Shown: positions 13,096-32,076 of the stretch, one piece after another
Layout: every line of letters begins with the position of its first letter
Position numbering within the stretch: position 1 is the stretch's first letter
Assembly (NCBI GenBank): GCA_014384565.1
Contig: JACNFO010000039.1
Span: forward strand, 623-64,622
From: Candidatus Pseudothioglobus aerophilus
GTDB taxonomy: Bacteria; Pseudomonadota; Gammaproteobacteria; PS1; Pseudothioglobaceae
Direction of reading: 5' to 3'
Length of the DNA stretch: 64,000 nt
Made by a program: the position numbers and the translations under genes
Notes under the pieces: generated by a model
What the model was told of the DNA's origin: nothing
Databases searched by the model: none
The model's input: only the letters and a program-made list of their open reading frames with translations

Positions 13096-13665
13096 TTACA
13101 AAACATTCTTCGCTGATACTTCAATAGCATGCAGCATTGAGACTCCGAAAGATCGCATTGTTAGAAGGACATAAGAATCGTCATCATCTCTATAAATTAT
13201 GGTCCCTATATGCTCCATAATAGTCCTAGAGACATTGCCAACAGAAAATACGTTTTTACTTAGATCGATTGGACAAATTCTCTCCAAAACATCTCTGCTT
13301 CTTGGGCCATTAACCCTAATCATCGCCCATGTATCAGATTGATCAGTATAGTAGGCAGGAGCATTTAATCTGTTTGCAATATTTACTTCCGCATCATTCC
13401 CTTCATAAGAAAAATAGGCTAGAACTTGATTTTTTTGTAAACGCCAAAGCGTTATAGACGAGTCTTTAGATTGAGTTGATCGCTCCATACCAGGAAGCGA
13501 TAAGCCACAAGATTTTGTCATTGATGACTCAATCTCTGTAAATTTGGACCTTGGTAATGCAACCATAACTAATGACTTGCCAACCACTTCTGAGACAGTT
13601 ACTCCTTCAAACTCATGCTCAGCACCATCAAGTGCAGATTCTACTACTAATTCATAATCAGACAC
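13096..13665 (-). CDS. soxG: Heterotetrameric sarcosine oxidase / N-methylglutamate dehydrogenase gamma subunit (SoxG/MgdD-like)
   Basis: DQSDTW, VNGPRSRDVLERICPIDL, MRSFG. True start is probably GTG at 13665, overlapping the alpha-subunit stop. Confidence 0.8.
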   Translation of the reverse strand: MSDYELVVESALDGAEHEFEGVTVSEVVGKSLVMVALPRSKFTEIESSMTKSCGLSLPGMERSTQSKDSSITLWRLQKNQVLAYFSYEGNDAEVNIANRLNAPAYYTDQSDTWAMIRVNGPRSRDVLERICPIDLSKNVFSVGNVSRTIMEHIGTIIYRDDDDSYVLLTMRSFGVSMLHAIEVSAKNVL

Positions 13666-16606
13666 GTAAACGCTCCCCTTCTGGATCAACAAAGTGAGGG
13701 CTGCATATTTCAACTTCAATATCATTGCCTCTCACTAAATCAACTGCTCGAACAAATTCGCCTTTGCGGCTGTGTCCGCTCTTAATAAAACCAATGCCAA
13801 TATAATGACCTAATATTGGTGAATAAATACAAGATGAAATCCAGCCCTGATCTGTTTCAGTCGATGGCTTATCTCTTAAGTTAAGGAGGTGTGAGCCAGC
13901 CTGAAGAAGGTCTTGAGTATTAACTGGTTTAAAGCCGACCATCTGCATGCGATCGTCACGAAGAAGATCTTCACGCAATCCAAGCTTATAACCTATAAAG
14001 TCTTTCTTGCCAGAAATCATTCCACCCATTCCTAAATCGTAGGCGCTAGTTTGACCATTAAGCTCTGGACCAGCAGCGTGACCTTTTTCAATTCGCATTA
14101 CGCCTAAGGCTTCAGTACCATAAGGCACAACATTAAACTCTTCACCCGCCTCCATTAGAGTTCTCATAAGTGAATCACCATAGCGAGTTTGAACAGCAAT
14201 TTCATAAGCCAACTCACCTGAAAATGATATTCTAAAGAGTCTTGCAGGTATTCCTCCGCAAACTGTAATCTCACCTGCAGCCATATAAGGGAATGCTTCA
14301 TTTGAAATATCACAATTTGAATCTACAACTTTTTGAAGTAACTTTCTAGAGTTTGGACCAGCAACTGCATACTGTGCAAACTGCTCCGTAACTGAAATCA
14401 TGTGTACATCAAGATCAGGCCATAAGCATTGATGACAAAACTGTAAATGGCGATAAACGTTAACAGCATTTGCAGTGGTTGTGGTCATTACAAAATGATT
14501 TTCAGAAAGTCTTGCGGTTGTTCCATCATCCATTACCATTCCATCTTCACGCAGCATTAGGCCATAACGAGTTTTACCCACTGGCACTTTTGCAAAAGCA
14601 TTTACATAGACTTTGTTAAGGAACTCTGAAACGTCAGCGCCTTTAATATCGATCTTACCGAGAGTTGTTACATCACAAATACCAACCGATGCTCTTGTTT
14701 GTTTTACCTCACGGTCAACAGATTCACGCCAATGAGTTTCTCCTGGTAATGGGAACCATTGAGAGCGATACCACATTCCAACCTCTACAAAAATAGCACC
14801 TTGCTCAACAGACCATTTATGGCTTGGAGTATATCGTGTTGGATAAAATTCCATTCCACGCCTTCTTCCAGCAAATGCCCCAATTGCTACTGGAGAATAC
14901 GGAGGCCTAAATATCGTAGTTCCAGTCTGTTCCATGGTTTGTCCCATATTATCGGCCATAATACCAATTCCAAGAACGTTAGCAGTTTTACCTTGGTCAG
15001 TAGCCATACCTAAGGTTGTATAGCGCTTAACATGCTCAACTGATTTAAATCCCTCTTGGTTTGCAAGCTTTATATCTTTTGCAGTAACGTCGTTTTGAAG
15101 ATCGACCCAAGCACGATTTTTTCCACTTGGAACCCCCCAGTTTGCAGTTACGCTATATGAAACTGTTTGAGTTTCAGCAGGATCTAATTCTTCAACTTTA
15201 TAGCCAAGATCGGAAGCGACAGCCAAACCCTCATTGTGCCCTTCAATAATTGCATCAGCCAAAACCATTGTTCCTTTAGCTCTTCCCGCAACTGACATTC
15301 CAGGTGGATTTGATTCATCTGGAATAAAAGAAGCAATCTTTTCGCTCCACTTTGGTATTCCGCGGTGATGACAAGTTAAATGAAGGTTTGGATTCCATCC
15401 ACCTGAAACAGCTAGGCAATCCGTGACTATTGACTTTCCATTAGTTAGTTTTATCGATTTTAGGGCTCTTCTACCTGAGGTATCTTCAACATCAGTACCC
15501 ATAAAAATTTCAGCACCCGGCACTCTTAGTACGGGACTAATTGAGCGAGAATCAATTACAGCAACGACTTTTATATTATTTAAAACCAAGTCTCTTGCTG
15601 TATTCCAACCATCATCATTATTTGTATAGACTGAAACTTTATCACCTGTAGCAACTGCAAATCTATTTGCATATGATCTAACGGCGCTTGCAAGCATAAC
15701 ACCTGGACGATCATTATTTCCAAATGCTATCGATCTTTCAATTGCGCCCGCACAAAGAATTGAGCGTTTGGCATAAATTCTCCAATTGACCTGACGAGGC
15801 TTATCTTTATATTCTCTAGCCTCTGACGCCCTATTTTCGATTGCACCATAAATGCCATGATCGTATACCCCAAAAATAGTTGTATCTGACATCAAGGTAA
15901 CGTTTTCCATTGCGCTCAAAGCAGCAACTGTATCTTTTGCCCATTTGCTTCCAGAAACGCCATTAATTTTTATGGACTCAGTGTTTAATCTTCCGCCCAT
16001 TAAAAAGTCTTCATCAGCAAGAATCACTTTTGCGCCGGAACTCGCAGCCGTTATGGCAGCAGATAATCCTGTTGCACCAGCACCAATAATTAAAATATCA
16101 CAATAGCGAAAACCTTTATCGTAAGTGTCAGGATCAGCCTCAGTTGAAAGAGTTCCTAGTCCGGCTGCATTTCGAATTGCAGGCTCATAAAACTTTTCCC
16201 AAAAAGCTTTAGGCCACATAAATGTTTTGTAATAAAAACCGGCACCAAGAAGTGGGGATAAAAAATCTGTAATAGCCATAAGATCAAATCCTAATGGACC
16301 TCTATGGTTTTGACTGTTTGCCTCTAATCCATTATATAACTCGGTAATAGTTGCCTTAGTGTTTGGCTCTTTATAGGCACCATTTCCAATCTCCATGATT
16401 GCATTTGGCTCCTCAGAGCCGGCAGTAACTATTCCGCGAGGACGATGGTATTTAAAAGAGCGACCAACCAATTTTTTGTTATTTGCGAGTAAGGCTGATG
16501 CAAGCGTATCACCTTCAAAACCAGTCAATATTTGACCATTAAAAGTAAAGCTTATAGATTTTTTTTGATTTACTAAACCGCCTTTGATTCTATTAATTTG
16601 ACTCAT
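13658..16606 (-). CDS. soxA: Heterotetrameric sarcosine oxidase / N-methylglutamate dehydrogenase alpha subunit (SoxA/MgdC-like)
   Basis: GDTLASALLAN, GRSFKYHRPRG, GAGATG, KRYTTLGMATDQGK, TFRPP-like IFRPPY; C-terminal GcvT-like THF-binding domain. Confidence 0.9.
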   Translation of the reverse strand: MSQINRIKGGLVNQKKSISFTFNGQILTGFEGDTLASALLANNKKLVGRSFKYHRPRGIVTAGSEEPNAIMEIGNGAYKEPNTKATITELYNGLEANSQNHRGPLGFDLMAITDFLSPLLGAGFYYKTFMWPKAFWEKFYEPAIRNAAGLGTLSTEADPDTYDKGFRYCDILIIGAGATGLSAAITAASSGAKVILADEDFLMGGRLNTESIKINGVSGSKWAKDTVAALSAMENVTLMSDTTIFGVYDHGIYGAIENRASEAREYKDKPRQVNWRIYAKRSILCAGAIERSIAFGNNDRPGVMLASAVRSYANRFAVATGDKVSVYTNNDDGWNTARDLVLNNIKVVAVIDSRSISPVLRVPGAEIFMGTDVEDTSGRRALKSIKLTNGKSIVTDCLAVSGGWNPNLHLTCHHRGIPKWSEKIASFIPDESNPPGMSVAGRAKGTMVLADAIIEGHNEGLAVASDLGYKVEELDPAETQTVSYSVTANWGVPSGKNRAWVDLQNDVTAKDIKLANQEGFKSVEHVKRYTTLGMATDQGKTANVLGIGIMADNMGQTMEQTGTTIFRPPYSPVAIGAFAGRRRGMEFYPTRYTPSHKWSVEQGAIFVEVGMWYRSQWFPLPGETHWRESVDREVKQTRASVGICDVTTLGKIDIKGADVSEFLNKVYVNAFAKVPVGKTRYGLMLREDGMVMDDGTTARLSENHFVMTTTTANAVNVYRHLQFCHQCLWPDLDVHMISVTEQFAQYAVAGPNSRKLLQKVVDSNCDISNEAFPYMAAGEITVCGGIPARLFRISFSGELAYEIAVQTRYGDSLMRTLMEAGEEFNVVPYGTEALGVMRIEKGHAAGPELNGQTSAYDLGMGGMISGKKDFIGYKLGLREDLLRDDRMQMVGFKPVNTQDLLQAGSHLLNLRDKPSTETDQGWISSCIYSPILGHYIGIGFIKSGHSRKGEFVRAVDLVRGNDIEVEICSPHFVDPEGERLRV

Positions 16607-16893
16607 TTGCCTCTACCTATTCCTCTTGAGACGTCTTGAGCTAACTCAACATTAATAATCTCATGTGATAAAGTGTTTCTAGTGACAACTAGCCAAGACT
16701 GATCGCCCTGCTCGTGGTACCAGAGCTCACGATGATCACCAGCAACATTTTCTCTAATGTACTGGTATTGATAAAAATCTTCAGCGGATGCATCATGCTC
16801 CCAATTACTGGGGCGATTTATAAGGTCAGCTGCACCTAAGTAAACAAATTCTTCAGAATCACGAGGACCAAGTAACGGGTGATTAATTATCAT
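16603..16893 (-). CDS. soxD: Sarcosine oxidase / MGD delta subunit (SoxD/MgdB-like), cysteine-free
   Basis: Sits between the beta and alpha genes; GPR..EF.Y.G, RP, RENVAG..RELWYH, VTRNTLSHEI. Confidence 0.8.
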   Translation of the reverse strand: MIINHPLLGPRDSEEFVYLGAADLINRPSNWEHDASAEDFYQYQYIRENVAGDHRELWYHEQGDQSWLVVTRNTLSHEIINVELAQDVSRGIGRGK

Positions 16894-16904
16894 ATTATGT
16901 CCTC

Positions 16905-18167
16905 CTAATGCAGATTTGGTTGAGCGCCAACACCTTTCTCATCAATCATTGCGCCACGCCTAAAGCGATCAAGTTTGTACGCTGTTGCTACTTCATGTGA
17001 GGAATTCGTTGCCAGCAAATGTGCGTAGCAGTATCCACTAGCAGGTGTCGCCTTAAAACCACCATAACACCATCCACCATTAAAAAATAATTCATCAATT
17101 TCAGTACTATCTATAAATGGAGAGCCGTCCATTGACATGTCCATAACCCCTCCCCACATTCTAAGTAATCTAGCACGCCCTATCATCGGCATAATAGCCA
17201 TACCGCCTGAACATACATCTTCAACAACAGGCAAGTTTCCACGTTGAGCATAGGTGTTATACCCATCAATATCGCCACCAAAAACAAGACCTCCTTTGTC
17301 AGACTGTGAGCAATAAAAGTGTCCAGCACCAAAAGTTATCACATTGTCCATTACTGGCTTAAGGCCTTCAGTTACAAAAGCTTGAAGAACATGACTTTCA
17401 ATAGGAAGTTTAATTCCAGCTTTCGCCATAACTCTTCCAGATGAACCTGCAACACAGACACCAACCCTTCCAGCCTTAATTTCACCTTTAGTTGTTTGAA
17501 CGCCCAAACATTTGCCATTTTCAATATTAAAGCCTGTAACCTCACAGTTTTGAATAATATCCACTCCAAGGTCACTAGCGCCTCTCGCGTACCCCCAAGC
17601 GACAGCATCATGACGAACCGTACCTCCACGAGGCTGCGATAAAGCAGCTTTAATTGGGAATCTTGGGTTGTCCATATCTAAAAATGGGTATCTTTCTTTT
17701 ACTTCTTTTGCCTCTATGAACTCACAACCCGCATCAGCAAATAACATACCGTTACCTCTTCTGATAAATGCATCACGTTGTGCGTCCGAATGAATTAGAT
17801 TCATAATACCGCGCTGTGAGACCATAGCGTTATAGTTTAAATCTTGCTCAAGATTTTCCCAAAGCTTGAGAGAAAATTCGTAAAAAGGCTCGTTACCAGG
17901 TAGTAAATAATTTGACCTGATAATGGTCGTATTTCTTCCCACATTACCACCACCTATCCAGCCTTTTTCAACAACAGCAACATTAGTAATACCATGATTT
18001 TTTGCTAAATAATAAGCAGTCGCTAAACCGTGTCCACCGCCACCAACGATGACAACATCATAACCGTCAGCTTTCGGCTCAGCATCACGCCAAGTTGGCT
18101 CCCAGCCTTTATGACCAGTCAGCGCTTCTTTGAGTACCTTAAAGCCAGAGTAGCGTGTTTTGCTCAC
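16905..18167 (-). CDS. soxB: Sarcosine oxidase / MGD beta subunit (SoxB/MgdA-like)
   Basis: GGGGHGLATAYYLAK, GRNTTIIRSNY, RHDAVAWGYA, NGGWCYGGFKATP. Confidence 0.9.
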   Translation of the reverse strand: MSKTRYSGFKVLKEALTGHKGWEPTWRDAEPKADGYDVVIVGGGGHGLATAYYLAKNHGITNVAVVEKGWIGGGNVGRNTTIIRSNYLLPGNEPFYEFSLKLWENLEQDLNYNAMVSQRGIMNLIHSDAQRDAFIRRGNGMLFADAGCEFIEAKEVKERYPFLDMDNPRFPIKAALSQPRGGTVRHDAVAWGYARGASDLGVDIIQNCEVTGFNIENGKCLGVQTTKGEIKAGRVGVCVAGSSGRVMAKAGIKLPIESHVLQAFVTEGLKPVMDNVITFGAGHFYCSQSDKGGLVFGGDIDGYNTYAQRGNLPVVEDVCSGGMAIMPMIGRARLLRMWGGVMDMSMDGSPFIDSTEIDELFFNGGWCYGGFKATPASGYCYAHLLATNSSHEVATAYKLDRFRRGAMIDEKGVGAQPNLH

Positions 18168-18171
18168 TTTT

Positions 18172-19518
18172 TTAGCTCCAAGGATACGGACTATTAGAAA
18201 CTGGATGAAGCTTGCCCGCTTTAAAGCGGCTAAACCTAAATGGCTCTAGGAGATCTTGTTTTTCACCTAGCAACTCTTCCGCTACCAAGCAGCCGACTCC
18301 TAACATTTTATATCCATGATTACTGTCTGCAATTATTGTTACATTTTCGTTATAAGTATCAATAACAGGAAAGCTGTCAGGAGTAAAGCAACCAATACCT
18401 CCAGATGGCTCTTTATGGTAATGAGGCATCATACCTTCGAACCTTTTATGGCAATGCGCAAGAGCAGATACCCACATTTCAGGGAAATCTTTACTTGCAG
18501 TAAATTCTTTACTTTCAGGGCCATATGGATCAATAGCAACATCATCTACAGGAGTATCTACTGTATATGGAGAAGCGCCGCCCTGTATTCCACCAAAACC
18601 CCAATCAGGTTTGTAATAAATACCCCATAATTGATCCGTAATTAATGATCCGTCAACAGTCGAATACAACGGAGCATCTGTGTCTACATGAAGTACTGGT
18701 GGAATTTTACCATCATTGGTTACTAAAGTTTCGGGTGGGATTTCTAAAACACCCTCCTCAAGCTGCCAAAAACGCCACATATCAATATCTTTATGAACTT
18801 CACCCTCAAGATCCTTTAATTCAATTTTAGACGGGAGTCCAAGCATATGCCAAAAATCACGAACCCAGGGGCCCGCTCCTATAATTAGGTTATCACATGC
18901 AATTGTTCCTTTATCTGTCTCAACCGCAGTAACTCTCTGGCCATCGCCTTCAGAAACAAAACCTGTAATCTCAGTTTCAAGAACAACAGTAACGCCTAAA
19001 TCCAATACCTTTTTAGAAAGACCTTCCATTGCTTTAACGTTGTTGGCATAGCCACCTGGTTTTTCATGAAGAACCGAAGTGATTCCTTCTGCTTGCCAAT
19101 CATCAAACATATTTAACATGTAATCACGCGACTCTTGCTCACCTTCAATAAAAACACTTTCATACCCAATTGCAGCTTGCTCAGTGTGAATTTGCTTAAC
19201 ATCTTCGCGCATTTTTTCACATGAAATTTGCATATAACCGTTTGCATGATAACTAAAAGCCTCTGGATCACTTTCCCAAATACTAACTGAATGCGCCATT
19301 AATTTTCGCATTGCAGGTTGAAAATAGTTATTACGGACAACACCACAAGCAATTCCAGTTGCTCCAGCTGCCACTCTATCTGATTTATCAATAATGACTA
19401 TTCGACCGTTAACGCTTTCACCATTTTCAGTTAATCGCTCAGCCAATCTCCATGCGGTTGACAATCCATGAATTCCTGCTCCGGCTATAACGTATTCCGC
19501 TTGACTCGGTAAAGACAT
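18172..19518 (-). CDS. FAD-dependent oxidoreductase, DAO/amine-demethylase superfamily, substrate unknown
   Basis: GAGIHGLSTAW Rossmann motif, GATGIACGVVRNNY, GAGPW, TPDSFP..D, DSNHGYK; ends 4 nt upstream of the soxB start. Confidence 0.8.
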   Translation of the reverse strand: MSLPSQAEYVIAGAGIHGLSTAWRLAERLTENGESVNGRIVIIDKSDRVAAGATGIACGVVRNNYFQPAMRKLMAHSVSIWESDPEAFSYHANGYMQISCEKMREDVKQIHTEQAAIGYESVFIEGEQESRDYMLNMFDDWQAEGITSVLHEKPGGYANNVKAMEGLSKKVLDLGVTVVLETEITGFVSEGDGQRVTAVETDKGTIACDNLIIGAGPWVRDFWHMLGLPSKIELKDLEGEVHKDIDMWRFWQLEEGVLEIPPETLVTNDGKIPPVLHVDTDAPLYSTVDGSLITDQLWGIYYKPDWGFGGIQGGASPYTVDTPVDDVAIDPYGPESKEFTASKDFPEMWVSALAHCHKRFEGMMPHYHKEPSGGIGCFTPDSFPVIDTYNENVTIIADSNHGYKMLGVGCLVAEELLGEKQDLLEPFRFSRFKAGKLHPVSNSPYPWS

Positions 19519-19907
19519 ACTAATCTCCTTGTGGTATTTAATTGTAAAAATAAATGTTTAAATTTGAATAAAATCTGGTTTTTAATTAGCATTATTATCT
19601 TTAAATTGGAAGCAATGAGTAGTTAAAAAATTCAAACCAAAGTGAAAATAATTCTGAGGTTGCCTAAAAATAAAATTTATACTTCCTTAAAATTATATTA
19701 TTGTATTTTAAATTCATAATATTTTAGATATTTATTGCTAATTATCTACCACAAAGGCTTAAATAGAAAATAAAAAAGCATGAATTGAGTCACCTTTTAT
19801 TTTATTAAATTGTAAATATTAACTTTAATATAGTCAAAAATGGTTCACTTTAATCACAACTTATACTAAAAGTAAGTATACTTTGATTCAACATTTAGGA
19901 AACAATT

Positions 19908-20798
19908 ATGTCTCGTAGATACTATAAATTACCACCTTTAACCTCTCTCGCAACCTTTGAGACTGCTGCTCGTCATAGAAGCTTTAAGGGTGCAGCTGAA
20001 GAGCTTGGCGTTACTCCAGGCGCAGTAAGTCATCAGATTAAGTTTTTAGAAACCGAGCTTGGTCTTTCACTATTCGATAGGAAGCATCACGGAAACAATT
20101 TAACCGATCATGGAGAATCTTTATTTGCTGTTCTTCAAAGCAGCTTTACTGCCATCTCTTCAACTCTTGCAAATCTTAGACGCTCTGCAACAGACAAAGA
20201 GGTAATTATAAGTGCTACCACTGCTATTTCTTTTATGTGGCTCCCTCCTCGATTAGCTGAATTTTGGAAGCAGCATCCCGAAATTCCTGTCAATCAACAC
20301 GTAACTGACAACCCTGACTCTCAAGGAGTAGCAGTTGACTTAAAAATTTGTTACGGTTTTGTTGAAAATGAATCTAATCAAAAACACACTCTTTTTCAAG
20401 ATGAACTTGTCCCATTATGTAGCCCTAGCTTTGCCAAAGAGTTTTTAAGCGCTTCTATTGAAGATTTAGCACAGGCACCTCTTATTCACCTTAGAGCTAA
20501 GGATAAAAATTGGTCTAACTGGTTTTCTTGGTTTAATGCTCTTGGATACAAAGGAAAAATCTCACCAGGAACTCATGTTAATAATTATATGATTGCCCTT
20601 CAAGCTGCTTCTGATGGAATGGGAATAGTCTTAGGGTGGAAGCGTCTGTGTAAACCTAAAATTGATAGTGGAGAGCTTGTTGTTCTGGGCGACACATCAA
20701 TACCAGCTCCATCTGCGATATACATTATGAGCGAAAAAGAAGATTTACTTCCGGAGAACGTCAAAATACTTAGGGATTTCCTTATTTCTAAGTCTTAA
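19908..20798 (+). CDS. LysR-family transcriptional regulator, GcvA-like
   Basis: LPPLTSLATFETAARHRSF..AAEELGVTPGAVSHQIKFLE HTH; WLPPRLAEFWKQHPEI. Confidence 0.9.
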   Translation: MSRRYYKLPPLTSLATFETAARHRSFKGAAEELGVTPGAVSHQIKFLETELGLSLFDRKHHGNNLTDHGESLFAVLQSSFTAISSTLANLRRSATDKEVIISATTAISFMWLPPRLAEFWKQHPEIPVNQHVTDNPDSQGVAVDLKICYGFVENESNQKHTLFQDELVPLCSPSFAKEFLSASIEDLAQAPLIHLRAKDKNWSNWFSWFNALGYKGKISPGTHVNNYMIALQAASDGMGIVLGWKRLCKPKIDSGELVVLGDTSIPAPSAIYIMSEKEDLLPENVKILRDFLISKS

Positions 20799-20813
20799 CT
20801 TTAAACTCTTTAG

Positions 20814-20826
20814 TGAAATCTATTCA
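20814..20826. promoter_or_regulatory. Possible LysR recognition box (T-N11-A palindrome)
   Basis: TGAA-ATCTA-TTCA about 80 bp upstream of the Rieske gene start. Confidence 0.3.
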
Positions 20827-20905
20827 ATTTTTTTAAGTAATTTTATTAAGAATAATTACTTTATGCAGATAGTATCATAGCGTTTTTTACTTCGACTTTC
20901 TCCTC

Positions 20906-22066
20906 ATGTCAATTCCTCTTAGTAACTTAGACTCTGTTCTAACATCAACTGATAAAGCAAAAGGACTACCTAACGAGCACTACGTGAGCGAGGCTGTCTT
21001 TGACGAAGAAAAAAAAGCAATTTTGTTTGATAATTGGTCAGCAATTGGGACTGGCAGCGATATACCGAATCCGGGCGATATTAAGCCACTAAATTTTGTT
21101 GGAATGCCTTTAATGTTGGTTCGTAACTCCAATGGAGCTATTAATGTATTTCAAAATACTTGTCGACATAGAGGAATGATTTTAATTAATGAACCAACAA
21201 ACATAAAAGGAGTTATAAGCTGTCCATATCATAGCTGGTGTTACAGTCTTGATGGTGATTTATTTGCAACACCTATGGTTGGAGGCACGGATATAAATAC
21301 TCATGAGTCTATTAAAAATGAAGAGCTCAGTCTCTTTAAAATTCGATCTGCAGTCTGGCAAGACGTTATCTTTGTAAACATTTCTAACTCTGCAAAGGAG
21401 TTTACTGATTACGCTTCAAAAGCCATTGCGAGATGGTCTGAGTTTGAAAAACCCCTTTATCATGGAGGTGAAAGTTCTTCATTCAAACTCAATTTAGATA
21501 CTAACTGGAAGCTAGCAGTTGAAAACTACTGTGAAAGCTACCATCTACCTTGGGTCCACCCAGAACTTAATGTTACTTCCAGTATAGAAGATCACTATCA
21601 TATTGAGGAGAAGGGTCATTTCTCTGGGCAAGGCTCTCATGTCTATAATCAAATGAAAAGTTCTGGTGGCAACGTATTTCCAGATTTTGAAGATTTATCA
21701 GATGAATGGGACACTAAAAGTGAGTATATCGCCTTGTATCCAAATGTACTTTTAGGAGTACATAGAGATCACTTTTATTCAATAATTATAGAGCCAATCT
21801 CTACAAATAAAACAATTGAGCATGTCTCACTATACTATGCAAAAGAGCCTTCTGAAATGCCAGAACTGAAAACACTTTTAAACTCTAACGCTTCTTTTTG
21901 GAAAACTGTCTTTAGTGAAGATATTGGCGTTGTAGAGGGAATGCAGCGCGGGAGGAGCGGCTTAATGTTTGATGGCGGAAAATTCTCACCAGTAATGGAC
22001 AGCGCTACTCACTGCTTTCATCAGTGGGTTGCCAAACTTTTAAAAGACTTTAGGGCAAAGCAGTAA
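20906..22066 (+). CDS. Rieske non-heme iron oxygenase alpha subunit, choline monooxygenase/GbcA/CntA-like group
   Basis: Rieske motif CRHRG...CPYHSW; iron site ENYCESYHLPWVHP with bridging Glu; EDIGVVEGMQRG. Confidence 0.85.
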   Translation: MSIPLSNLDSVLTSTDKAKGLPNEHYVSEAVFDEEKKAILFDNWSAIGTGSDIPNPGDIKPLNFVGMPLMLVRNSNGAINVFQNTCRHRGMILINEPTNIKGVISCPYHSWCYSLDGDLFATPMVGGTDINTHESIKNEELSLFKIRSAVWQDVIFVNISNSAKEFTDYASKAIARWSEFEKPLYHGGESSSFKLNLDTNWKLAVENYCESYHLPWVHPELNVTSSIEDHYHIEEKGHFSGQGSHVYNQMKSSGGNVFPDFEDLSDEWDTKSEYIALYPNVLLGVHRDHFYSIIIEPISTNKTIEHVSLYYAKEPSEMPELKTLLNSNASFWKTVFSEDIGVVEGMQRGRSGLMFDGGKFSPVMDSATHCFHQWVAKLLKDFRAKQ

Positions 22067-22072
22067 GCGAAT

Positions 22073-22906
22073 TTATAACCTTGCCTTGTAGGCTGTTAAA
22101 GTATTCTCAAGTAACACTGCAATAGTCATTGGCCCAACACCTCCAGGAACAGGAGAGATAGCAGAGACCATGCCTTTAACAGCTTCATAATCCACATCAC
22201 CCGTCAATGCCCCATTATCAAGCCTATTAATACCAACATCAATTACAACGGCGCCTTCTTTTATCCAGTCAGCGTTAACTAAGTTGGCAACTCCAGCAGC
22301 AGCAATAATAACATCTGCAGACTTAGTTTTAACCTTTATATCTTTTGTCTCCTTGTGGCAAACTTGAACTGTAGCGCCTGCATTGAGAAGTTCCATTGCC
22401 ATTGGCCTTCCCACAATATTTGAGGCGCCAATGATTACGCAATCCTTACCCCTAAGTTCACACTTGATAGAGGCTAACATTTTCATAACGCCTCTTGGAG
22501 TACAAGGACTAATGAATGGTTTTTTTAAGCTTAACTTGCCAATATTTTCACTACTAAAACCATCAACATCTTTTTCGGGAATAATCGACTCAATTATTAC
22601 ATTTGCATCAATGTGAGCAGGCAAAGGAAGTTGAACTAAGATGCCATCGATATTATTATTTACATTAAGCCTTTGAACTTCCGAGAGGAGCTCTTCTTGA
22701 GTAATATTTGCGGATTTATGAATCTGATCAGAATAAAAGCCAACCTGGACGCAAGCTTTAGACTTGTTTCTTACATAGACCTTAGAAGCTTCATCATCAC
22801 CAACTAAAATGACTGCAAGTCCGGGAGGTCTAGAATATTGCTTAACCTCATTAGCAATATTTTTTCTAAGATTTTCAGCAAGAACTCTGCCATCTATAAT
22901 CTTCAT
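22073..22906 (-). CDS. folD: Methylene-THF dehydrogenase/cyclohydrolase
   Basis: PGLAVILVG, GILVQLPLP, EKDVDG, PCTPRG, GASNIVGRP, PVPGGVGPMT. Confidence 0.96.
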   Translation of the reverse strand: MKIIDGRVLAENLRKNIANEVKQYSRPPGLAVILVGDDEASKVYVRNKSKACVQVGFYSDQIHKSANITQEELLSEVQRLNVNNNIDGILVQLPLPAHIDANVIIESIIPEKDVDGFSSENIGKLSLKKPFISPCTPRGVMKMLASIKCELRGKDCVIIGASNIVGRPMAMELLNAGATVQVCHKETKDIKVKTKSADVIIAAAGVANLVNADWIKEGAVVIDVGINRLDNGALTGDVDYEAVKGMVSAISPVPGGVGPMTIAVLLENTLTAYKARL

Positions 22907-23028
22907 TTGTGTAGCTCTCCAGATTTATAAATACGAAAGTGATATTATCGTAGTAAAAAAAAAGAAAATTATTAATTAATTTCACTTAGATTTGAATTTA
23001 AAAGGGCTCTACTAGAAATGGATAGAAT

Positions 23029-25473
23029 CTAGTCAATTCCTAGTAACTTTCTTCTCTTCGTTGCCCAGGTCTGGATTAAATGATCCACTGCAAGACCGAT
23101 AAACGCCACGCATAAACCAAGCATTAGACCAGTTCCAATATTGCCTCCAGAAAAAAGTTGTTGCATTATTTCTTGGCCTAAATCTGTAGTACCAATAAAC
23201 GCACCTATAATAACCATAAACAATGCAAAAATAACGCACTGATTGACGCCCAGCATAATATGTGGGAAAGCTAATGGGAACTCGATTTTAACCATACGCT
23301 GAAGTTTTGTTGCGCCCGACATATCTCCCGCTTCAAGCAAAGATTCTGGTACATTTCTCAGGCCTTCTACGGTGTAGCGAGTAGGCGGAATAACAGCGTA
23401 GACAATGACCGCAATTAACACTGAAGTGTCAGTCACACCAAAGAGCATAATCACCGGAATAAGATAAATGAACGACGGAAAAGTTTGAAAAGTGTCACAA
23501 ACCAAAAGAATGAATTTGGTTGCCCTCTTATTTTGCACACAGATTGCACCAACAATCGTACCAATAATAACAGAAACAATGACTGCAAACGTCAGCATAT
23601 ACATAGTTATCAAGGCTCTTTCCCACCAGGGTGTTAGAGCAATAAACAACATAAACAAACCAATTACAATCGCAGAACGAATGCCACCGATAATGTAACC
23701 AACACCCATTGTTAGAACAAAAGTTGCTATTGCTGGCATGGCCAGATAAGACGCTTTCATTGGCATCAACACTTCCACCAGTAACCACTTGTTAAATATT
23801 TTAATATCCGCTCTCCAATTTGAAACCATGTAGTCAACGCCTGCCTGCCAAAATGGCTCAGTGGTAATACCTTTGTTGTGGGGTATCGTGTGAAAATAGT
23901 TAATACCTTTTGCAGTATCAGCAAACATCCAGTTACCAAACCAAGCAAACAAAAGAGCGGCAAAGAAAACTGCAACAAACAAAAGAGCTGTTTTATTTCT
24001 ATCAACAAAAGAAAGGTCAGCAAAGTAGTCGGTTTGCTTATTGGCCCAAGCTAAAGATAATTTATCTAACACTACAGCAATCAGGACAATACATACTCCT
24101 AATTCTAGCGCTTGACCTACCCTTAGTTGGTTTAGAGCGAGTAATAAGTTAAAACCCAGGCCCTTAGCTCCAATAAAAGAAGCAATCACTACCATAGCCA
24201 AGCACTGCATAATTACCTGGTTGACGCCAATTAAAATGTCGCGCCTTGCAGTAGGTATCAAAACTTTAAACATCAGTTGATAATTATGGCAACCACTCAT
24301 CATGCCTGCATCTAAAACCTCTGGAGAGACTCTTTTGAGACCTAGCAAGGTGAGTCGAATCATCGGAGGTGTTGCAAAAATTATTGTTGCAATCGCACCC
24401 GCATGGTCACCAATACCAAAGAACACAATTACTGGTACCAAATACGCGAAATGTGGAAACGTTTGTGCAACGAGGAGCAATGGCGTTATTACTCTCTCAA
24501 CCGTTCTACTCTTGTAGGCAAGCACAGCCCAGATAACACCTAATAAAACAGAGACTGGTGCAGCAACCAACACCAAAGAGAGTGTCTGCATTGCGGGTTC
24601 CCATTGGCCGAATACAGCCAAGTAAATACAACTGAAACCAGCCAATATAGAAAGACCCACACCTTTAAGTTTATAACCCAAAATAAAAGCACCGGCAGTT
24701 AATACTGTCCAAGGAATAGCAGGGACACTGGAGTACCACTTATCCTTATTTTCAGCGAGCCAATCCCAGCCGGATTGATCACTAAAAACATTGGCAAGTG
24801 AAACGACTGTCTCAAAACCACCAATCAATAATTCCCGAATTAAAGTAATTAAAAACAATAAAGTGGCGCCAATAGCTCGGGTAAATAATCGAACTCGACC
24901 ATAGTCTTCATAGTCTTCAATTTCTGGGTCGTAAACTGGTGTCACCCAAAATTCGAATATGAGGTACTGAGAAAAATCTTGCAACATTGATGGTAATTCC
25001 CAAAACGTACTTCTTGTCACCTCACCAAAAAACCAGTTATACAAAGTAGGTATAAACAGAAGTCCCACAATAATACCAACAAAGCCCTTGCTAATAATTT
25101 GAAACCAATTGAAACTTAACCACTGTGATTTATTGACGCTCTCTGCAAAGCTTTTGTATAAGAGCCCAGCAGTTACCAATAAAGCTATTAGAACATAGGT
25201 GGCGGAAGTGTTAATGACAGGGTGATAAAAAGTCAGCTCAGGAATTCTAACGAGTTGAGGAGGAAGTTGCCAATTCAGAATCATTGACATGGATTCAGCA
25301 AAACCAGCCGAAGATTGTATTTCTCCCTTAACAACAGACTTGGCAAATAAATGACGCTCTACTATCAAATCATGGTATTGCCCTGTCATTGACATGAGAA
25401 TAAAAAACACAATGAGGACAATGCCCAATTGCGTCAGTTTAGGGCGTTCAGATAAATAATTGATAAAGTTCAT
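23029..25473 (-). CDS. tmoV: ABC transporter permease with two fused ProW-type modules (TmoV-like)
   Basis: Two copies of QTFP.F.YL.P / EAA-like loop / GAKGLG-GTTDLG; downstream of tmoW and tmoX. Confidence 0.75.
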   Translation of the reverse strand: MNFINYLSERPKLTQLGIVLIVFFILMSMTGQYHDLIVERHLFAKSVVKGEIQSSAGFAESMSMILNWQLPPQLVRIPELTFYHPVINTSATYVLIALLVTAGLLYKSFAESVNKSQWLSFNWFQIISKGFVGIIVGLLFIPTLYNWFFGEVTRSTFWELPSMLQDFSQYLIFEFWVTPVYDPEIEDYEDYGRVRLFTRAIGATLLFLITLIRELLIGGFETVVSLANVFSDQSGWDWLAENKDKWYSSVPAIPWTVLTAGAFILGYKLKGVGLSILAGFSCIYLAVFGQWEPAMQTLSLVLVAAPVSVLLGVIWAVLAYKSRTVERVITPLLLVAQTFPHFAYLVPVIVFFGIGDHAGAIATIIFATPPMIRLTLLGLKRVSPEVLDAGMMSGCHNYQLMFKVLIPTARRDILIGVNQVIMQCLAMVVIASFIGAKGLGFNLLLALNQLRVGQALELGVCIVLIAVVLDKLSLAWANKQTDYFADLSFVDRNKTALLFVAVFFAALLFAWFGNWMFADTAKGINYFHTIPHNKGITTEPFWQAGVDYMVSNWRADIKIFNKWLLVEVLMPMKASYLAMPAIATFVLTMGVGYIIGGIRSAIVIGLFMLFIALTPWWERALITMYMLTFAVIVSVIIGTIVGAICVQNKRATKFILLVCDTFQTFPSFIYLIPVIMLFGVTDTSVLIAVIVYAVIPPTRYTVEGLRNVPESLLEAGDMSGATKLQRMVKIEFPLAFPHIMLGVNQCVIFALFMVIIGAFIGTTDLGQEIMQQLFSGGNIGTGLMLGLCVAFIGLAVDHLIQTWATKRRKLLGID

Positions 25474-25483
25474 GGTGCTAGCC

Positions 25484-26533
25484 TTAAGCGTTGCTTTCTA
25501 GTGTTGAATTTTCACCAAATAACACATGAATTACTTTAGATGAATGAACAACACCAACAATATCATCATTTGCATTGAGTACGGGAACTGATTTAGGGTC
25601 GCCGAGCACAGCTTCGGCAACAGTTTCAATAATGGCATCTTCGGAGACCCTTAAATCACTAAAGTCTGTTTCATCGCCAACAGGCTCCATCACTGATTTA
25701 ATTTTAAGAACCTTCTCCCTTGGAACATCCTCTGTAAACTTGCGAACGTATTCTGTTGCTGGATTAAGAACTATATTTGCAGGTGTATCCAATTGCTCGA
25801 TAATGCCATCTTTCATGATTGCAATCCGATCGGCAAGCCTTAGTGCTTCATCAAAGTCATGAGTAACGAAAAGAATCGTCTTATTTAGGACACCCTGAAG
25901 CCTTAGAAACTCATCTTGCATCTCTTTACGAATTAACGGATCTAATGCTGAGAAGGGCTCATCCAAGAACCAAATATCGGGTTCAACAGCTAGAGAGCGT
26001 GCGATTCCAACTCGTTGCTGCTGACCACCAGAGAGTTGTCTTGGGAAATAATTCTCACGACCAGTTAAGCCAACAAGGTCAACCATGTCTTTGGCTCTTT
26101 GCATGCTGTCTTTTGTGCTATTGCCTTTCACTTGCAATGGAAACGCTATATTCTCTAATACGGTTTTATGGGGTAATAATGCAAAACTCTGAAACACCAT
26201 GCCCATCTTGTTGCGACGAAGTTCTATCAACTCCTTATCACTCATTGAGGTTAAATCTTCACCCTCAATATAAATATTCCCTGCAGTGGCATCGGTTAGT
26301 CTTGAAATACAACGAAGCAAGGTCGACTTGCCCGAGCCTGAAAGACCCATAACCACAAGCATCTCACCCTTATTAACCTCGAAAGAGGCATTATTAACTC
26401 CGACTACACAGCCAGCTTTTTGAAATTCTTCAGCAACAACCTTGCCATTTGCATTTTTAAGCATTTTTTCGGCATTTTTGCCAAATATTTTATAAACGGA
26501 ATCGCATTTAATTACAGGTTGCTGATCAGACAT
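25484..26533 (-). CDS. tmoW: ProV-type ABC ATPase (TmoW-like)
   Basis: GLSGSGKSTL, LSGGQQQRVG, DEPFSALDPLIR, VTHD. Confidence 0.8.
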   Translation of the reverse strand: MSDQQPVIKCDSVYKIFGKNAEKMLKNANGKVVAEEFQKAGCVVGVNNASFEVNKGEMLVVMGLSGSGKSTLLRCISRLTDATAGNIYIEGEDLTSMSDKELIELRRNKMGMVFQSFALLPHKTVLENIAFPLQVKGNSTKDSMQRAKDMVDLVGLTGRENYFPRQLSGGQQQRVGIARSLAVEPDIWFLDEPFSALDPLIRKEMQDEFLRLQGVLNKTILFVTHDFDEALRLADRIAIMKDGIIEQLDTPANIVLNPATEYVRKFTEDVPREKVLKIKSVMEPVGDETDFSDLRVSEDAIIETVAEAVLGDPKSVPVLNANDDIVGVVHSSKVIHVLFGENSTLESNA

Positions 26534-26581
26534 AATATCTTCCTAAATTCTTTGAAACAAATAACACACTACCAGTATATA

Positions 26582-26626
26582 TAAAAATACCCCTACCCCC
26601 TCATAATAAATTTGAGGGCAAGGGTA
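26582..26626 (-). terminator. Intrinsic terminator-like hairpin between tmoX and tmoW
   Basis: Minus strand TACCCTTGCCCTCA...TGAGGGGGTAGGGGTA followed by TTTTT. Confidence 0.6.
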
Positions 26627-26679
26627 CTTAACAAACACCCCTTATTCTATTTGAATGAAGAGTGCTCTAGATTAAAGGG

Positions 26680-27636
26680 TTATTTGGTGAAAGCCATCCA
26701 AACATCCTCGTTATCCGCAAGCCACTTAGCTGCAGCATCCTCATGAGACATCTTATCAATATCAACTAGAGCAGCCATCTGACCGATCATGCCAGTCGTG
26801 AAGTCTATCTTAGTGTATGCCTTATACGCCATTGGATGAGTCTTAGGGAACTTATAGTTCGCCGCTTTCTTCAACCAACCTCTAGGAGATCCACAAGCCC
26901 CGTCACCACCTTCTGTTTCACGGCAACCAAAGAAGTATGGAGGAAACTCTATGAAGTAAAAACCATCACTATCCGTAAAGTTAGGTGTCCAGTTAAATAT
27001 AATTATGCCTTCTCCAGCAGCTTCTGCAGAATCAATAGCGGCCCAAAGGGCGTCTGCACTACCAGTTTGTTTATAAGTATATTCATCATCTAAACCAAGA
27101 GCTCCAATACGATCTTCAAATAGATTCTTTCCGGTTTCAGCATCAACATGCCAAGGACCGTCTAAGAAAACACCTTTACCACCAGAATCGGCAGTGGCAA
27201 AAACTGATCCACAACCTTTAAGAGCCTCCCAATTTGGAAGTCCAGGACATAGATTTTTCTCTATTACGAAGTTAGGAACGCCCATATCTTCAATAGTCAA
27301 GGCAGAATGGGTACCAGCTTCTATTAGACCGCCCTTCTCCATGGCTGTATAGTAAGCGTTGCCAAAGGCTCCTTCCCAAACTTCGTGAGATATAGTAACG
27401 TCTCCAAGACGAATCGATTCATATACACCTGACGAGTCAGCAGGAACGTAAGATACGTTGTTACCCATAGACTCAAAAATACCACCAATAACGTAGGACA
27501 TAACCACTTGGCTTGACCAGTTGTGAATTGGTATAACGATTGGCTTTGAAGAGTCAGCTGCAAGAGCTTGACCCGATACAGAAGCTAAAGTCATCGTTAA
27601 AGCAGCAGCAGCTACTTTACTTGTAAACTTATTCAT
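26680..27636 (-). CDS. tmoX: TMAO-binding periplasmic protein (TmoX-like)
   Basis: Signal peptide; DSSKPIVIPIHNWSSQ, VYESIRLGDV, HEVWE, LCPGLP, ADALWA, FNWTPNF. These match TmoX proteins as I recall them; lies next to tdm. Confidence 0.8.
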   Translation of the reverse strand: MNKFTSKVAAAALTMTLASVSGQALAADSSKPIVIPIHNWSSQVVMSYVIGGIFESMGNNVSYVPADSSGVYESIRLGDVTISHEVWEGAFGNAYYTAMEKGGLIEAGTHSALTIEDMGVPNFVIEKNLCPGLPNWEALKGCGSVFATADSGGKGVFLDGPWHVDAETGKNLFEDRIGALGLDDEYTYKQTGSADALWAAIDSAEAAGEGIIIFNWTPNFTDSDGFYFIEFPPYFFGCRETEGGDGACGSPRGWLKKAANYKFPKTHPMAYKAYTKIDFTTGMIGQMAALVDIDKMSHEDAAAKWLADNEDVWMAFTK

Positions 27637-30305: not shown

Positions 30306-30692
30306 TTAGAATTTACGGTAAGCGTTATTAAGGTCAACCATTGGGTGGTTTTCTGACATTTGAAACTTAACTAATAATTCACGAGCAATCATATCTCGCT
30401 CTTGCTGGTTATTTGGAAGTTTTATATTGTCCGGAATAGTGACCCAACCATTAATATTTCTATCAAAAACAGCAGCTTGATCGCCCTCATAACCCATATG
30501 AATATCTTCTAACCAGTTAAGATCTTTCCAGCCCATTTTTTCAATATATTTTTGTAAAAAAGGCGTTATAAACTTAAGATCAGGAACAAGGTTTACATCA
30601 TATCTATAACCGATATGTTGTCCAATCATTTGCTCGCGATCGGTATCTAAGCCATCAGCACCAACTACAAATGTTTCTTCATTTTTACTCAT
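30306..30692 (-). CDS. Hypothetical 128-aa protein, last gene of the GS-like/mgs operon
   Basis: GGAG RBS; starts 14 nt after the mgsC stop; protein-like composition; no motif I recognise. Confidence 0.75.
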   Translation of the reverse strand: MSKNEETFVVGADGLDTDREQMIGQHIGYRYDVNLVPDLKFITPFLQKYIEKMGWKDLNWLEDIHMGYEGDQAAVFDRNINGWVTIPDNIKLPNNQQERDMIARELLVKFQMSENHPMVDLNNAYRKF

Positions 30693-30706: not shown

Positions 30707-32041
30707 TTAAAAACGTGTCATATCAGGACGACCAACCGTGTGCTGTGAACCTGCAATAGGAACTTGTGCACAAGCTGAAGCCTCCATAGTAAGAGCAGCT
30801 AGATCTTCTGGCTCTAATGAGTGTATATTTGTCTTACCACAGGCACGAGCCATCATTTGAGTCTCGATTGCTAGTGTATGTAAGAAGTTGTATACACGCT
30901 CTGATGCTTCATCCGGATCCAGACGCTTTCTAAGTTCAGGATCTTGAGTTGCAACACCAACCGGGCAGCGCCCAGTATGACAGTGGTAACATTCACCGGC
31001 TTTAACGCCCATTTCAGCTTCATAATTAGCTTCAGGAATATCTCTATTACAGTTAAGCGCCATAAGCGATGAGTGGCCAATCGCAACTGCGTCAGCACCA
31101 AGTGCAACGGCTTTAGCTACGTCACCACCATTTCGAATACCACCCGCATAAACTAAAGAAATTCTGCCGCTCATCCCAACATCATCAATCGCCCTTCGAG
31201 CTTGACGAATTGCTGCAATTCCTGGTACTCCAGTTTCTTCTGTCGCAATATGTGGTCCAGCAGCAGTGCCGCCTTCCATTCCATCAATATAAATACTATC
31301 ACAACCAGTCTTAGCGGCCATACGTACATCATCGTATACACGCGCTGCACCAAGTTTAAGCTGAATTGGAATCTGACCATCTGTCGCTTCACGAATCTCT
31401 TCAATCTTTAGCGCCAAGTCATCTGGTCCAAGCCAGTCTGGATGTCTCGCAGGAGATCGCTGATCAATACCGGCAGGTAAAGAACGCATTTCAGCAACCT
31501 GGTCTGTAACTTTTTGGCCCATTAGGTGTCCACCTAAACCAACCTTACAGCCTTGACCAATAAAAAATTCAACACTATCCGCTAAACGTAAATGTTGTGG
31601 GTTAAAGCCATAACGCGACTGAATACACTGGTAGAACCACTTACTTGAGTAGCGTCTCTCATCTGGAATCATTCCGCCCTCACCTGAACAGGTGGCAGTT
31701 CCGGCCATCGTAGCACCGCGAGCTAGAGCTGTTTTAGCCTCATAACTCAATGCACCAAAGCTCATTCCAGTAATGTAAATTGGAATGTCCAGCTCTAATG
31801 GTCTTGGAGCCTCTGGCCCAATAATTGTCTTAGTTAAGCATTTTTCTCTATAACCCTCAATAACAAAACGAGTTAACGTTCCAGGCATGAAAGTCAAGTC
31901 ATCCCATGTTGGAATTTTTTTAAATAGAGAGAAACCTCTCATTCTGTATCTACCCAAATCAGACTTGATGTGAATATCATCCATCACCGCTTTAGGGAAG
32001 ATAAAACTTTTTCCTAGTCTATGGTTTTCTGAATCACTCAT
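30707..32041 (-). CDS. mgsC: N-methylglutamate synthase FMN/Fe-S subunit (MgsC/GlxD-like)
   Basis: GMSFGALS, GEGGM, IGQG.K.G.GG.L.GQKV, RHPDW.GPDDL, GGIRNGGDVAKA, CYHCHTGRCPVG Fe-S motif. Confidence 0.8.
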   Translation of the reverse strand: MSDSENHRLGKSFIFPKAVMDDIHIKSDLGRYRMRGFSLFKKIPTWDDLTFMPGTLTRFVIEGYREKCLTKTIIGPEAPRPLELDIPIYITGMSFGALSYEAKTALARGATMAGTATCSGEGGMIPDERRYSSKWFYQCIQSRYGFNPQHLRLADSVEFFIGQGCKVGLGGHLMGQKVTDQVAEMRSLPAGIDQRSPARHPDWLGPDDLALKIEEIREATDGQIPIQLKLGAARVYDDVRMAAKTGCDSIYIDGMEGGTAAGPHIATEETGVPGIAAIRQARRAIDDVGMSGRISLVYAGGIRNGGDVAKAVALGADAVAIGHSSLMALNCNRDIPEANYEAEMGVKAGECYHCHTGRCPVGVATQDPELRKRLDPDEASERVYNFLHTLAIETQMMARACGKTNIHSLEPEDLAALTMEASACAQVPIAGSQHTVGRPDMTRF

Positions 32042-32076
32042 AATATTTCCTTTTGTTTAATTTGTTAAAAATGCTA

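Follow-up and report, generated by a model that had tools for sequence, protein, structure and literature searches.

Dimethylamine (DMA) is a climate-relevant aerosol precursor. Dmm, the only marine bacterial DMA enzyme known, is missing from SAR11 and from abundant marine Gammaproteobacteria, and a metabolic bottleneck has been proposed (Lidbury 2017). In Candidatus Pelagibacter ubique HTCC1062, the protein SAR11_1304 shows the second-strongest induction under nitrogen limitation, and amine demethylation had already been suspected as its role (Smith 2013); demethylation of free DMA has been raised for it (Smith 2013; Lidbury 2017). Here we analyse DAOx, a stand-alone flavin adenine dinucleotide (FAD) oxidoreductase of the Sox family encoded at 18172–19518 on the minus strand (448 residues, ATG start; protein label P0001) of a 64,000-nucleotide window, the whole stretch of DNA studied, from Candidatus Pseudothioglobus aerophilus (contig JACNFO010000039.1); window coordinates are used throughout. 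The genome, a Candidatus Thioglobus-type assembly, measures 1.47 Mb and is 91% complete. The DAO fold and the suspected role of SAR11_1304 were known before this work, and our literature searches found no characterised SAR11 DMA dehydrogenase and no assay of any member of the DAOx family. The reading that we favour, tentatively and at somewhat less than even confidence, is that DAOx is a cytoplasmic, FAD-dependent, N-demethylating amine oxidoreductase of the Sox family, working as a single protein on an N-methylated alpha-amino acid, and that it belongs to a 'type-2' gene module that replaces Dmm. N,N-dimethylglutamate, rather than free DMA, would most likely be its substrate, and DAOx is a candidate for part of the unsolved marine DMA step.

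A DAO-superfamily flavoprotein had been recognised at this position in a reading of the sequence made without database searches (hereafter the sequence-only reading), and the assignment holds. The Pfam DAO family (PF01266) matches DAOx with an E-value of 5.5e-29, the match being confined to residues 9–229, and an AlphaFold2 model built from a 64-sequence alignment (pLDDT 91.7; an earlier 8-sequence input gave a poor model, pLDDT 59.7) has the whole chain as one two-domain DAO fold. The model aligns over residues 3–447 to DAO-family structures (Z 30–41), with the beta subunit of proline dehydrogenase as top match (1y56_B; Z 40.9, rmsd 2.1 over 366 residues) and SoxB of heterotetrameric sarcosine oxidase as the second (2gag_B, Z 38.9; Foldseek SoxB E 5e-29); glycine oxidase, dimethylglycine dehydrogenase (DMGDH), MTOX and MSOX rank lower. 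The flavoprotein fold takes up all 448 residues, and the Pfam search found no GCV_T or tetrahydrofolate (THF) domain in DAOx, as the sequence-only reading had said. No NCBIfam model scores at or above its cut-off: the best, soxB TIGR01373, reaches 61.3 bits against a cut-off of 529 and covers residues 8–217 only, the models of the monomeric sarcosine oxidase family reach 37.2 bits (TIGR01377; cut-off 479.65) and 46.3 bits (NF008425, MTOX; cut-off 257), and the ThiO model reaches 46 bits (cut-off 251). DAOx and its relatives form a new, distinct family within the Sox/DAO fold. Their public names do not agree ('monomeric sarcosine oxidase', 'methylglutamate dehydrogenase subunit A', 'glycine/D-amino acid oxidase-like deaminating enzyme', 'FAD-binding oxidoreductase'), and the literature search found no assay behind any of them.

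In sarcosine oxidases, Arg52, Tyr55 and Lys348, conserved across the Sox family, hold the carboxylate of the substrate (PMC12582975). Among 64 sequences of the DAOx family, Arg62 and Tyr65 (R62-N-N-Y65), Lys404, Cys58 and His151 are invariant. Arg62 and Tyr65 line up with the IIRSNY motif of SoxB in a sequence alignment, and the longer motifs that the sequence-only reading had contrasted, GATGIACGVVRNNY in DAOx and GRNTTIIRSNY in SoxB, are both present. Lys404 sits in an NHGYK motif, akin to GGFK of SoxB and to GHGFK. Alignment of DAOx to the SoxB profile by hhalign ended at residue 229, so that the C-terminal halves were not aligned by sequence, and a phmmer search of residues 340–448 against the PDB gave no match. 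The carboxylate-binding Arg-x-x-Tyr and Lys of the Sox family appear to be kept in the DAOx family, and their conservation, if the equivalence holds, favours an N-methylated (N-substituted) alpha-amino acid over a free amine; this argument for an amino-acid substrate is new here. Further invariant positions not found in SoxB (Cys58, His151-Glu152, His277, Arg359 and a C-terminal S-x-x-P-W) may, speculatively, form a larger or doubly anionic pocket. Since genes for electron-transfer flavoprotein are present in the genome, an oxidase and a dehydrogenase mode of DAOx cannot be told apart.

DAOx is the first of five closely packed genes on the minus strand (13096–19518), the others being soxBDAG, also named mgdABCD. 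They encode the beta subunit of an N-methylglutamate dehydrogenase-type heterotetramer (soxB/mgdA, 16905–18167; TIGR01373, 645 bits, above cut-off), the delta subunit (soxD/mgdB, 16603–16893; Pfam SoxD, 3.3e-26), the alpha subunit with its GcvT-type THF domain (soxA/mgdC, 13658–16606; TIGR01372, 1297 bits; Pfam GCV_T, SO_alpha_A3 and Fer2_4) and the gamma subunit (soxG/mgdD, 13096–13725; TIGR01375, 3.6e-17). A strong AAGGAG ribosome-binding site lies 6 nt before the DAOx ATG, the GTG start of soxB lies 4 nt past the DAOx stop codon, 11 nt separate soxB from soxD, soxD and soxA overlap by 4 nt, and soxA and soxG overlap too. The sequence-only reading had described these five genes as tightly coupled, with a GcvA-like LysR gene diverging from them, and both points are borne out. 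By this spacing DAOx is predicted to be translationally coupled to the Mgd genes, on a common transcript with soxBDAG. The SoxB of the window is 73–79% identical to that of Roseobacter-type islands that carry the Dmm marker and a canonical-type GmaS (G098 contig 39), a likeness that places soxBDAG here in the ordinary MgdABCD type. The control region between DAOx and the LysR gene (19519–19907, 389 nt) holds a perfect palindrome, AAGTATACTT; the block ATGTTGAAT..AAGTATACTT.CTTTT is kept in two Thioglobus-type relatives (L003 and L004), and a second conserved block, GATAATAATGCTAAT, lies on the DAOx side. Both blocks are candidate LysR operator sites. The regulator itself (19908–20798, plus strand; Pfam HTH_1 and LysR_substrate) matches the GcvA model NF008352 best, at 230 bits and below its cut-off, and promoter and terminator scans gave no more sites than shuffled sequence. 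A second soxBDAG set lies elsewhere in this genome, outside the window (G000 contig C25, ~18400–23000; SoxB 51% and SoxA 37% identical to those of the window) together with three DMGDH-like genes of ~820–850 codons, and is probably the true sarcosine/glycine-betaine branch.

The window also holds the source of DMA. The trimethylamine N-oxide (TMAO) demethylase gene, tdm (27801–30101, minus strand; NF053776, 1107 bits, above cut-off), is accompanied on the same strand by a tmoXVW-type ABC transporter (23029–27636), by folD for methylene-THF oxidation (22073–22906; NF008058, 392 bits) and by the remaining genes of the type-2 module, which we define by gene order as DAOx, GS2, Mgs2ABC and a small protein, and which is uncharacterised. 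GS2 (33920–35395) is a ligase of the glutamine synthetase (GS) family that scores 308 bits with the GmaS model TIGR03105 (cut-off 469.6); against solved chains it scores 183 bits (9QUR) and 165 bits (7CQL) with GmaS and 224 bits with an archaeal GS, and by these scores it is judged not to be a canonical GmaS. Mgs2ABC (30707–33845) comprises amidotransferase-like, GXGXG and FMN glutamate-synthase-like subunits, and the small protein of 128 residues (30306–30692), without a Pfam match, is the last gene of the module. All six genes lie within the window, with DAOx 14 kb from GS2 and heading mgdABCD instead of the GS2 operon. No open reading frame of this genome passes the GmaS cut-off of TIGR03105, and Mgs2AB is the sole MgsA/MgsB-like set found in it. 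With a canonical-type mgdABCD present and no canonical GmaS or MgsAB found, it must be the type-2 genes that supply Mgd with its substrate. PF11927, the haem/PAS alpha subunit of Dmm/HODM, has no match in this 91%-complete genome; the same search finds the family in Tritonibacter and other genomes. DAOx relocated to the head of mgdABCD, and a genome relying on type-2 genes alone, are to our reading the new elements of this locus, and the combination of no canonical GmaS/MgsAB found, a canonical MgdABCD and a DAOx predicted to be coupled to Mgd narrows the hypotheses.

The pattern extends to other genomes. In all, 401 Alphaproteobacteria and 401 Gammaproteobacteria were sampled for Tdm, and the 54 positives (33 and 21, respectively, this genome among the 21) were searched for DAOx, GS2 and, as the Dmm marker, PF11927. 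GS2 and the Dmm marker were found together in one genome, GS2 without the marker in 36, the marker without GS2 in 11 and neither in six (Fisher p 1.4e-6), whereas DAOx and GS2 were found together in 29 genomes, DAOx only in two, GS2 only in eight and neither in 15 (p 5e-6); the sampled genomes are related and not independent, so that these p-values, and the one given below, overstate the evidence. Among the gammaproteobacteria, 14 genomes have GS2, six the Dmm marker, none both and one neither, and in the two that have GS2 and no DAOx the GS2 start lies within 700 nt of a contig end. Thus the type-2 module, not DAOx alone, is the alternative to Dmm in tdm genomes. We had also considered a strict complementarity of DAOx and Dmm, and rejected it: three genomes have both (DAOx only 28, Dmm marker only nine, neither 14; p 0.018), and in the alphaproteobacteria alone the Fisher p is 1.0, although in the gammaproteobacterial sample the rule holds, with DAOx in none of the six Dmm-marker genomes. 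That the exclusion of Dmm holds for the module and not strictly for DAOx is likewise new.

The DAOx family is widespread. An exhaustive HMMER search gave ~200 cluster representatives below 1e-30, of which the full-length ones are 39–62% identical to P0001, and a scan of one genome per species found relatives in at least 586 species. The best 80 of these are 60–88% identical to DAOx and belong to Paracoccaceae, Rhizobiaceae, Pelagibacteraceae, Kiloniellales, Dongiaceae, Hellea, Halieaceae, Woeseia, Rubrobacter and other Actinomycetota; an identity of 60–70% across bacterial classes is unusually high for a DAO-family enzyme. The exact sequence occurs on 117 contigs, within a 90%-identity cluster of 1339 members. 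Neighbourhoods were compared in the 80 best-matching loci from other species, by tblastn with the window proteins and by clustering of neighbouring open reading frames; counts of the next gene cover the 73 loci with a called DAOx. Homologues mostly lie with, not away from, methylamine genes: 45 of the 80 loci have methylated-amine genes (a GS-like/Mgs-like module, Mgd-type sox, tdm or tmoX) in the fetched flanks. Together with GS2 in 29 of the 31 DAOx-positive, tdm-positive genomes, this upholds the link to methylamine catabolism that the sequence-only reading had put forward as a possibility; by its conserved carboxylate-binding residues, a free amine such as DMA is the less likely substrate. 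In the dominant layout a divergent GntR gene is followed on one strand by DAOx, GS2, the Mgs-like genes A to C and that for the small protein; GS2 comes directly after DAOx in 21 of 73 loci and is present in 34 of 80, and the small protein, directly after Mgs2C, in 29 of 80. DAOx does head the sox operon here and is not peculiar to it: the gene belongs to a widespread family that usually heads another operon. No DUF3445/Dmm gene lies within 10 kb of DAOx in the 80 loci. Around DAOx-GS2 there also recur a CN_hydrolase gene (11 loci), a class-I glutamine amidotransferase-like protein (13 loci) and a 198-residue protein without a Pfam family (18 loci), with L006:16537-17388, L006:8399-9145 and L007:17490-18086 as reference members; the CN_hydrolase and the amidotransferase-like protein bring to mind omega-amidase and gamma-glutamyl-amide hydrolases.

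soxB directly follows DAOx in three of 73 loci only, the two Thioglobus-type relatives and L014, a Rhizobiaceae metagenome-assembled genome. Mgd-type sox genes also lie beside DAOx in L009, L012, L013, L020, L021, L031, L054, L066, L081 and L102, and in L036, L052 and L058 DAOx closes a different Sox-type operon (SoxB ~42%, SoxA ~33% identical). In independent lineages, DAOx thus shares its locus or its transcript with heterotetrameric Sox-type enzymes of two clades (L003, L004, L014, L021 and L066; L036, L052 and L058). In Litorimonas (L061:11372-12493) and Hellea (L044:11491-12597) a stand-alone GcvT-like THF protein of ~370 residues is encoded directly downstream of DAOx, a pair that resembles a split dimethylglycine oxidase, with formate dehydrogenase genes nearby; L014 has a related GcvT-like gene ~5 kb away from DAOx and on the other strand (L014:16543-17727). 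Coupling to Sox-type and GcvT-like genes is in keeping with an N-demethylase whose C1 unit or mono-methyl product is passed on. In a maximum-likelihood tree the gammaproteobacterial Thioglobus DAOx clade is nested in an alphaproteobacterial (Paracoccaceae/Rhizobiaceae-type) clade (SH-aLRT 96–98), which suggests that the gene was acquired from Alphaproteobacteria by cross-class transfer; in the Thioglobus lineage it seems to have been moved in front of a canonical mgdABCD. A third clade of Sox-type genes (SoxB-like 40–46%, SoxA-like 32–34% identical to those of the window), uncharacterised, occurs beside DAOx in L036, L052 and L058 and downstream of the type-2 module in L040, L051, L053, L059 and L070, in genomes without an Mgd-type SoxB.

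A counterpart outside Thioglobus is found in SAR11. In the Pelagibacteraceae locus L035, tdm is followed by DAOx with a 0-nt gap, GS2, Mgs2ABC, the small protein and amt, and then by a canonical GmaS; DAOx of this locus is 63% identical to P0001, and its genome has the canonical GmaS (614 bits with TIGR03105, above cut-off) beside GS2 (288 bits). This order reproduces that of SAR11_1303 to SAR11_1317 in HTCC1062 (Sun 2011; Smith 2013), and by this synteny DAOx is the orthologue of SAR11_1304, the comparison being with the genes of a relative of HTCC1062 and the published gene order of that strain.

On these grounds we propose the following route, in which every catalytic step is inferred. Tdm would convert TMAO to DMA, and GS2 with Mgs2ABC would load DMA onto glutamate; DAOx would then remove the first methyl group, converting N,N-dimethylglutamate to N-methylglutamate and a C1 unit; MgdABCD, encoded directly downstream on the putative DAOx transcript, would transfer the second methyl group to THF and regenerate glutamate; and FolD would oxidise the C1 unit. 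The scheme is the simplest to account for a distinct ligase/synthase set that travels with DAOx and replaces Dmm, for a canonical Mgd that is here without a canonical supplier of N-methylglutamate, and for the predicted translational coupling of DAOx to Mgd. The data show the fold, family, gene order, phyletic pattern and conserved residues, from which the substrate, the sequence of steps and the electron acceptor are deduced. We know of no EC number for an N,N-dimethylglutamate demethylase. The full version of the proposal, in which DAOx is this demethylase and makes up, with GS2, Mgs2ABC and MgdABCD, a complete DMA-to-glutamate route without free methylamine, used by SAR11, SUP05/Thioglobus and many marine bacteria for TMAO-derived DMA, is a possibility of which we are doubtful. 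If true, it would close the supposed 'bottleneck' in marine methylated-amine cycling.

Several observations weigh against an N,N-dimethylglutamate demethylase that belongs to the module. The equation of Lys404 with MSOX Lys348 is by motif position (NHGYK, GGFK, GHGFK). DAOx has no THF domain of its own, so that formaldehyde would be set free if there were no partner to take it up. A full-text literature search found nothing relevant on N,N-dimethylglutamate in amine catabolism. Under nitrogen limitation the SAR11_1304 protein is strongly up, and SAR11_1305 (GS2) and SAR11_1308 (Mgs2C) are down (Smith 2013), an opposite response that speaks against a role bound strictly to the module. Two tdm-positive genomes, G001 and G349, combine DAOx with the Dmm marker and lack GS2; a LysR-Rieske-DAOx unit is present, as in G349. 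Moreover, on a complete alphaproteobacterial chromosome (L101; G069:C1:630000-650000) a GntR gene lies with GS2-Mgs2ABC-small protein, amt and tdm, and DAOx was not found anywhere in that genome at E <= 1e-60; the type-2 module can exist without DAOx.

Of the other explanations, the one already raised by Smith (2013) and Lidbury (2017) is that DAOx is a DMA dehydrogenase or oxidase, converting free DMA to methylamine and formaldehyde, with GS2 and Mgs2ABC then acting like GmaS and MgsABC. Such an enzyme would also complete the pathway in this genome, where tdm is present and Dmm was not found, the SAR11-type order tdm-DAOx-GS2 is colinear with the succession TMAO, DMA, methylamine, gamma-glutamyl amide, and the negative association of DAOx with the Dmm marker, including its absence from all six marker genomes of the gammaproteobacterial sample, is what it would predict. 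DMA, however, has no carboxylate for the invariant residues equated with the Sox triad to hold, the co-inheritance of a distinct ligase/synthase set would be left unexplained, as would the retention by streamlined SAR11 of a canonical GmaS in addition to GS2, and DAOx and the Dmm marker occur together in three tdm-positive genomes. We consider free DMA an unlikely substrate. The phenotype of a dmm mutant of R. pomeroyi proved unusable as an argument against the DMA idea: the gene upstream of gmaS (SPO1573) is the serine hydroxymethyltransferase SPO1572, and R. pomeroyi therefore need not carry DAOx at that locus.

The apparent carboxylate triad would also fit a single-subunit N-methylglutamate or sarcosine-like oxidase, an isoenzyme of MgdABCD with another acceptor or affinity that serves nitrogen scavenging. 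Many module loci have DAOx and no nearby Mgd-type sox genes, an aminotransferase gene lies upstream of DAOx in six gammaproteobacterial loci, two of the public names ('methylglutamate dehydrogenase subunit A' and 'monomeric sarcosine oxidase') say as much, and the induction of SAR11_1304 under nitrogen limitation independently of SAR11_1305 and SAR11_1308 would suit such a role. An isoenzyme co-transcribed with the full MgdABCD, as it seems to be here and in L003, L004 and L014, would nevertheless be redundant in a 1.47-Mb genome, and DAOx recurs beside heterotetrameric Sox-type enzymes in several lineages. This explanation, too, does not seem likely to us.

Upstream of DAOx, past the LysR gene, lies a CntA-like Rieske oxygenase (20906–22066, plus strand; Pfam Rieske and Ring_hydroxyl_A) whose closest solved chain is the carnitine monooxygenase CntA (6y8j; 111 bits, full length), not GbcA or Stc2, and which may cleave a quaternary amine to an amine and an aldehyde. 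DAOx could then serve this LysR and Rieske unit, with or without an aldehyde dehydrogenase, by acting on a betaine or quaternary-amine product with no link to DMA, its position before mgdABCD reflecting shared regulation. The unit recurs in L016, L030, L044, L047, L049, L061, L074, L075 and L103, in hosts that include Hellea, Litorimonas, Fodinicurvata, Cocleimonas and Halieaceae as well as G349, some of them without GS2; the Rieske gene has an aldehyde dehydrogenase gene with it in L003, L016, L047 and L049, and in L003, the 88%-identical relative, the latter stands where this genome has folD. Rieske-linked and GS2-linked DAOx are interleaved in the tree, which suggests one activity in all contexts and, with it, an enzyme that probably serves both. 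But a Rieske gene adjoins DAOx in 12 of 80 loci, with GS2 present in 34 of 80, no close orthologue of an aldehyde dehydrogenase or reductase was found near the Rieske gene or in this genome, and the demethylation of an N-methylated amino acid that we favour could still accommodate an N,N-dimethyl amino acid derived from betaine; we regard a role confined to the Rieske unit as improbable. That DAOx is instead a fifth or alternative beta-type subunit docking on the SoxA/D/G scaffold and sharing its THF site is very improbable, because, although its two closest folds are beta subunits of heteromeric enzymes, its conservation between classes is very high and it would share a transcript with soxBDAG here, the covalent-FMN His is missing (RGGTVRH in SoxB, PGGYANN in DAOx), sox genes are not adjacent in most genomes, soxB being next downstream in so few loci, and descriptions of characterised N-methylglutamate pathway clusters list eight genes, with no partner of this kind.

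Among known systems, DmmDABC of Methylocella and Ruegeria (HODM-type, PF11927) may fill the same pathway position as DAOx, the disposal of DMA made by Tdm, and is unrelated to it in protein and chemistry, being a haem/PAS oxygenase with a reductase and a THF subunit. SAR11_1304, which carries the annotation 'monomeric sarcosine oxidase', belongs to the same family and has the same place in the gene order as DAOx; the SAR11 gene is first in the GS2 operon, next to tdm, and a canonical GmaS is present as well, whereas in the Thioglobus genome it heads mgdABCD and no canonical GmaS was found. The closest solved chain in both structure and sequence, the beta subunit of L-proline dehydrogenase from Pyrococcus horikoshii (PDB 1Y56 chain B; matched by the family profile at 2.4e-27, 23% identity), acts as part of an alpha4beta4 complex, with Met at the position of the invariant Lys404 of DAOx, and the gene context of DAOx shows no link to proline.

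SoxB/MgdA (TIGR01373; PDB 2GAG, 1VRQ and 3AD7) shares with DAOx the two-domain DAO fold (Z 38.9, TMq 0.72), the GxGxHGL dinucleotide motif, the (I/V)(I/V)R-x-N-Y motif, a Lys within G-(F/Y)-K close to the C-terminus, and an occurrence in methylated-amine gene clusters. Identity to the neighbouring SoxB is nonetheless 24%, detectable over the FAD half (residues 1–229) only; the His that binds FMN covalently is absent, PRGGTVRH of SoxB aligning by BLASTP with KPGGYANN of DAOx and Asn160 standing at the His position; DAOx is ~45 residues longer than the solved SoxB chains, with an invariant C-terminal tail of its own; and, unlike SoxB, it is usually encoded without alpha, gamma and delta partner genes. 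A second SoxB or alternative beta subunit was rejected as the main reading on account of the missing His, the low identity over half the chain and the usual lack of sox neighbours, in agreement with the sequence-only reading, which had called DAOx clearly not a second SoxB. The MSOX, MTOX and NikD enzymes (TIGR01377, NF008425; PDB 1EL5 and 2UZZ) are, like DAOx in the reading that we favour, single-subunit FAD amine oxidases that demethylate N-methyl amino acids, and the carboxylate-binding Arg-x-x-Tyr and Lys seem to be common to both; identity in structural alignments is 15–18%, and Cys315 of MSOX, which binds FAD covalently, corresponds by motif alignment to Gly in DAOx. Dimethylglycine oxidase (DMGO) and DMGDH (PDB 1PJ5 and 4PAB) have a fused GcvT-type THF domain and a His-bound covalent FAD, neither of which DAOx has, and their flavoprotein domain has the same fold (Z 32.7–35.2). 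They provide the analogy that we propose, in which a tertiary N,N-dimethyl amino acid first loses one methyl group and a sarcosine-type enzyme then takes the second, so that the route from N,N-dimethylglutamate to glutamate would parallel the sequence from dimethylglycine through sarcosine to glycine.

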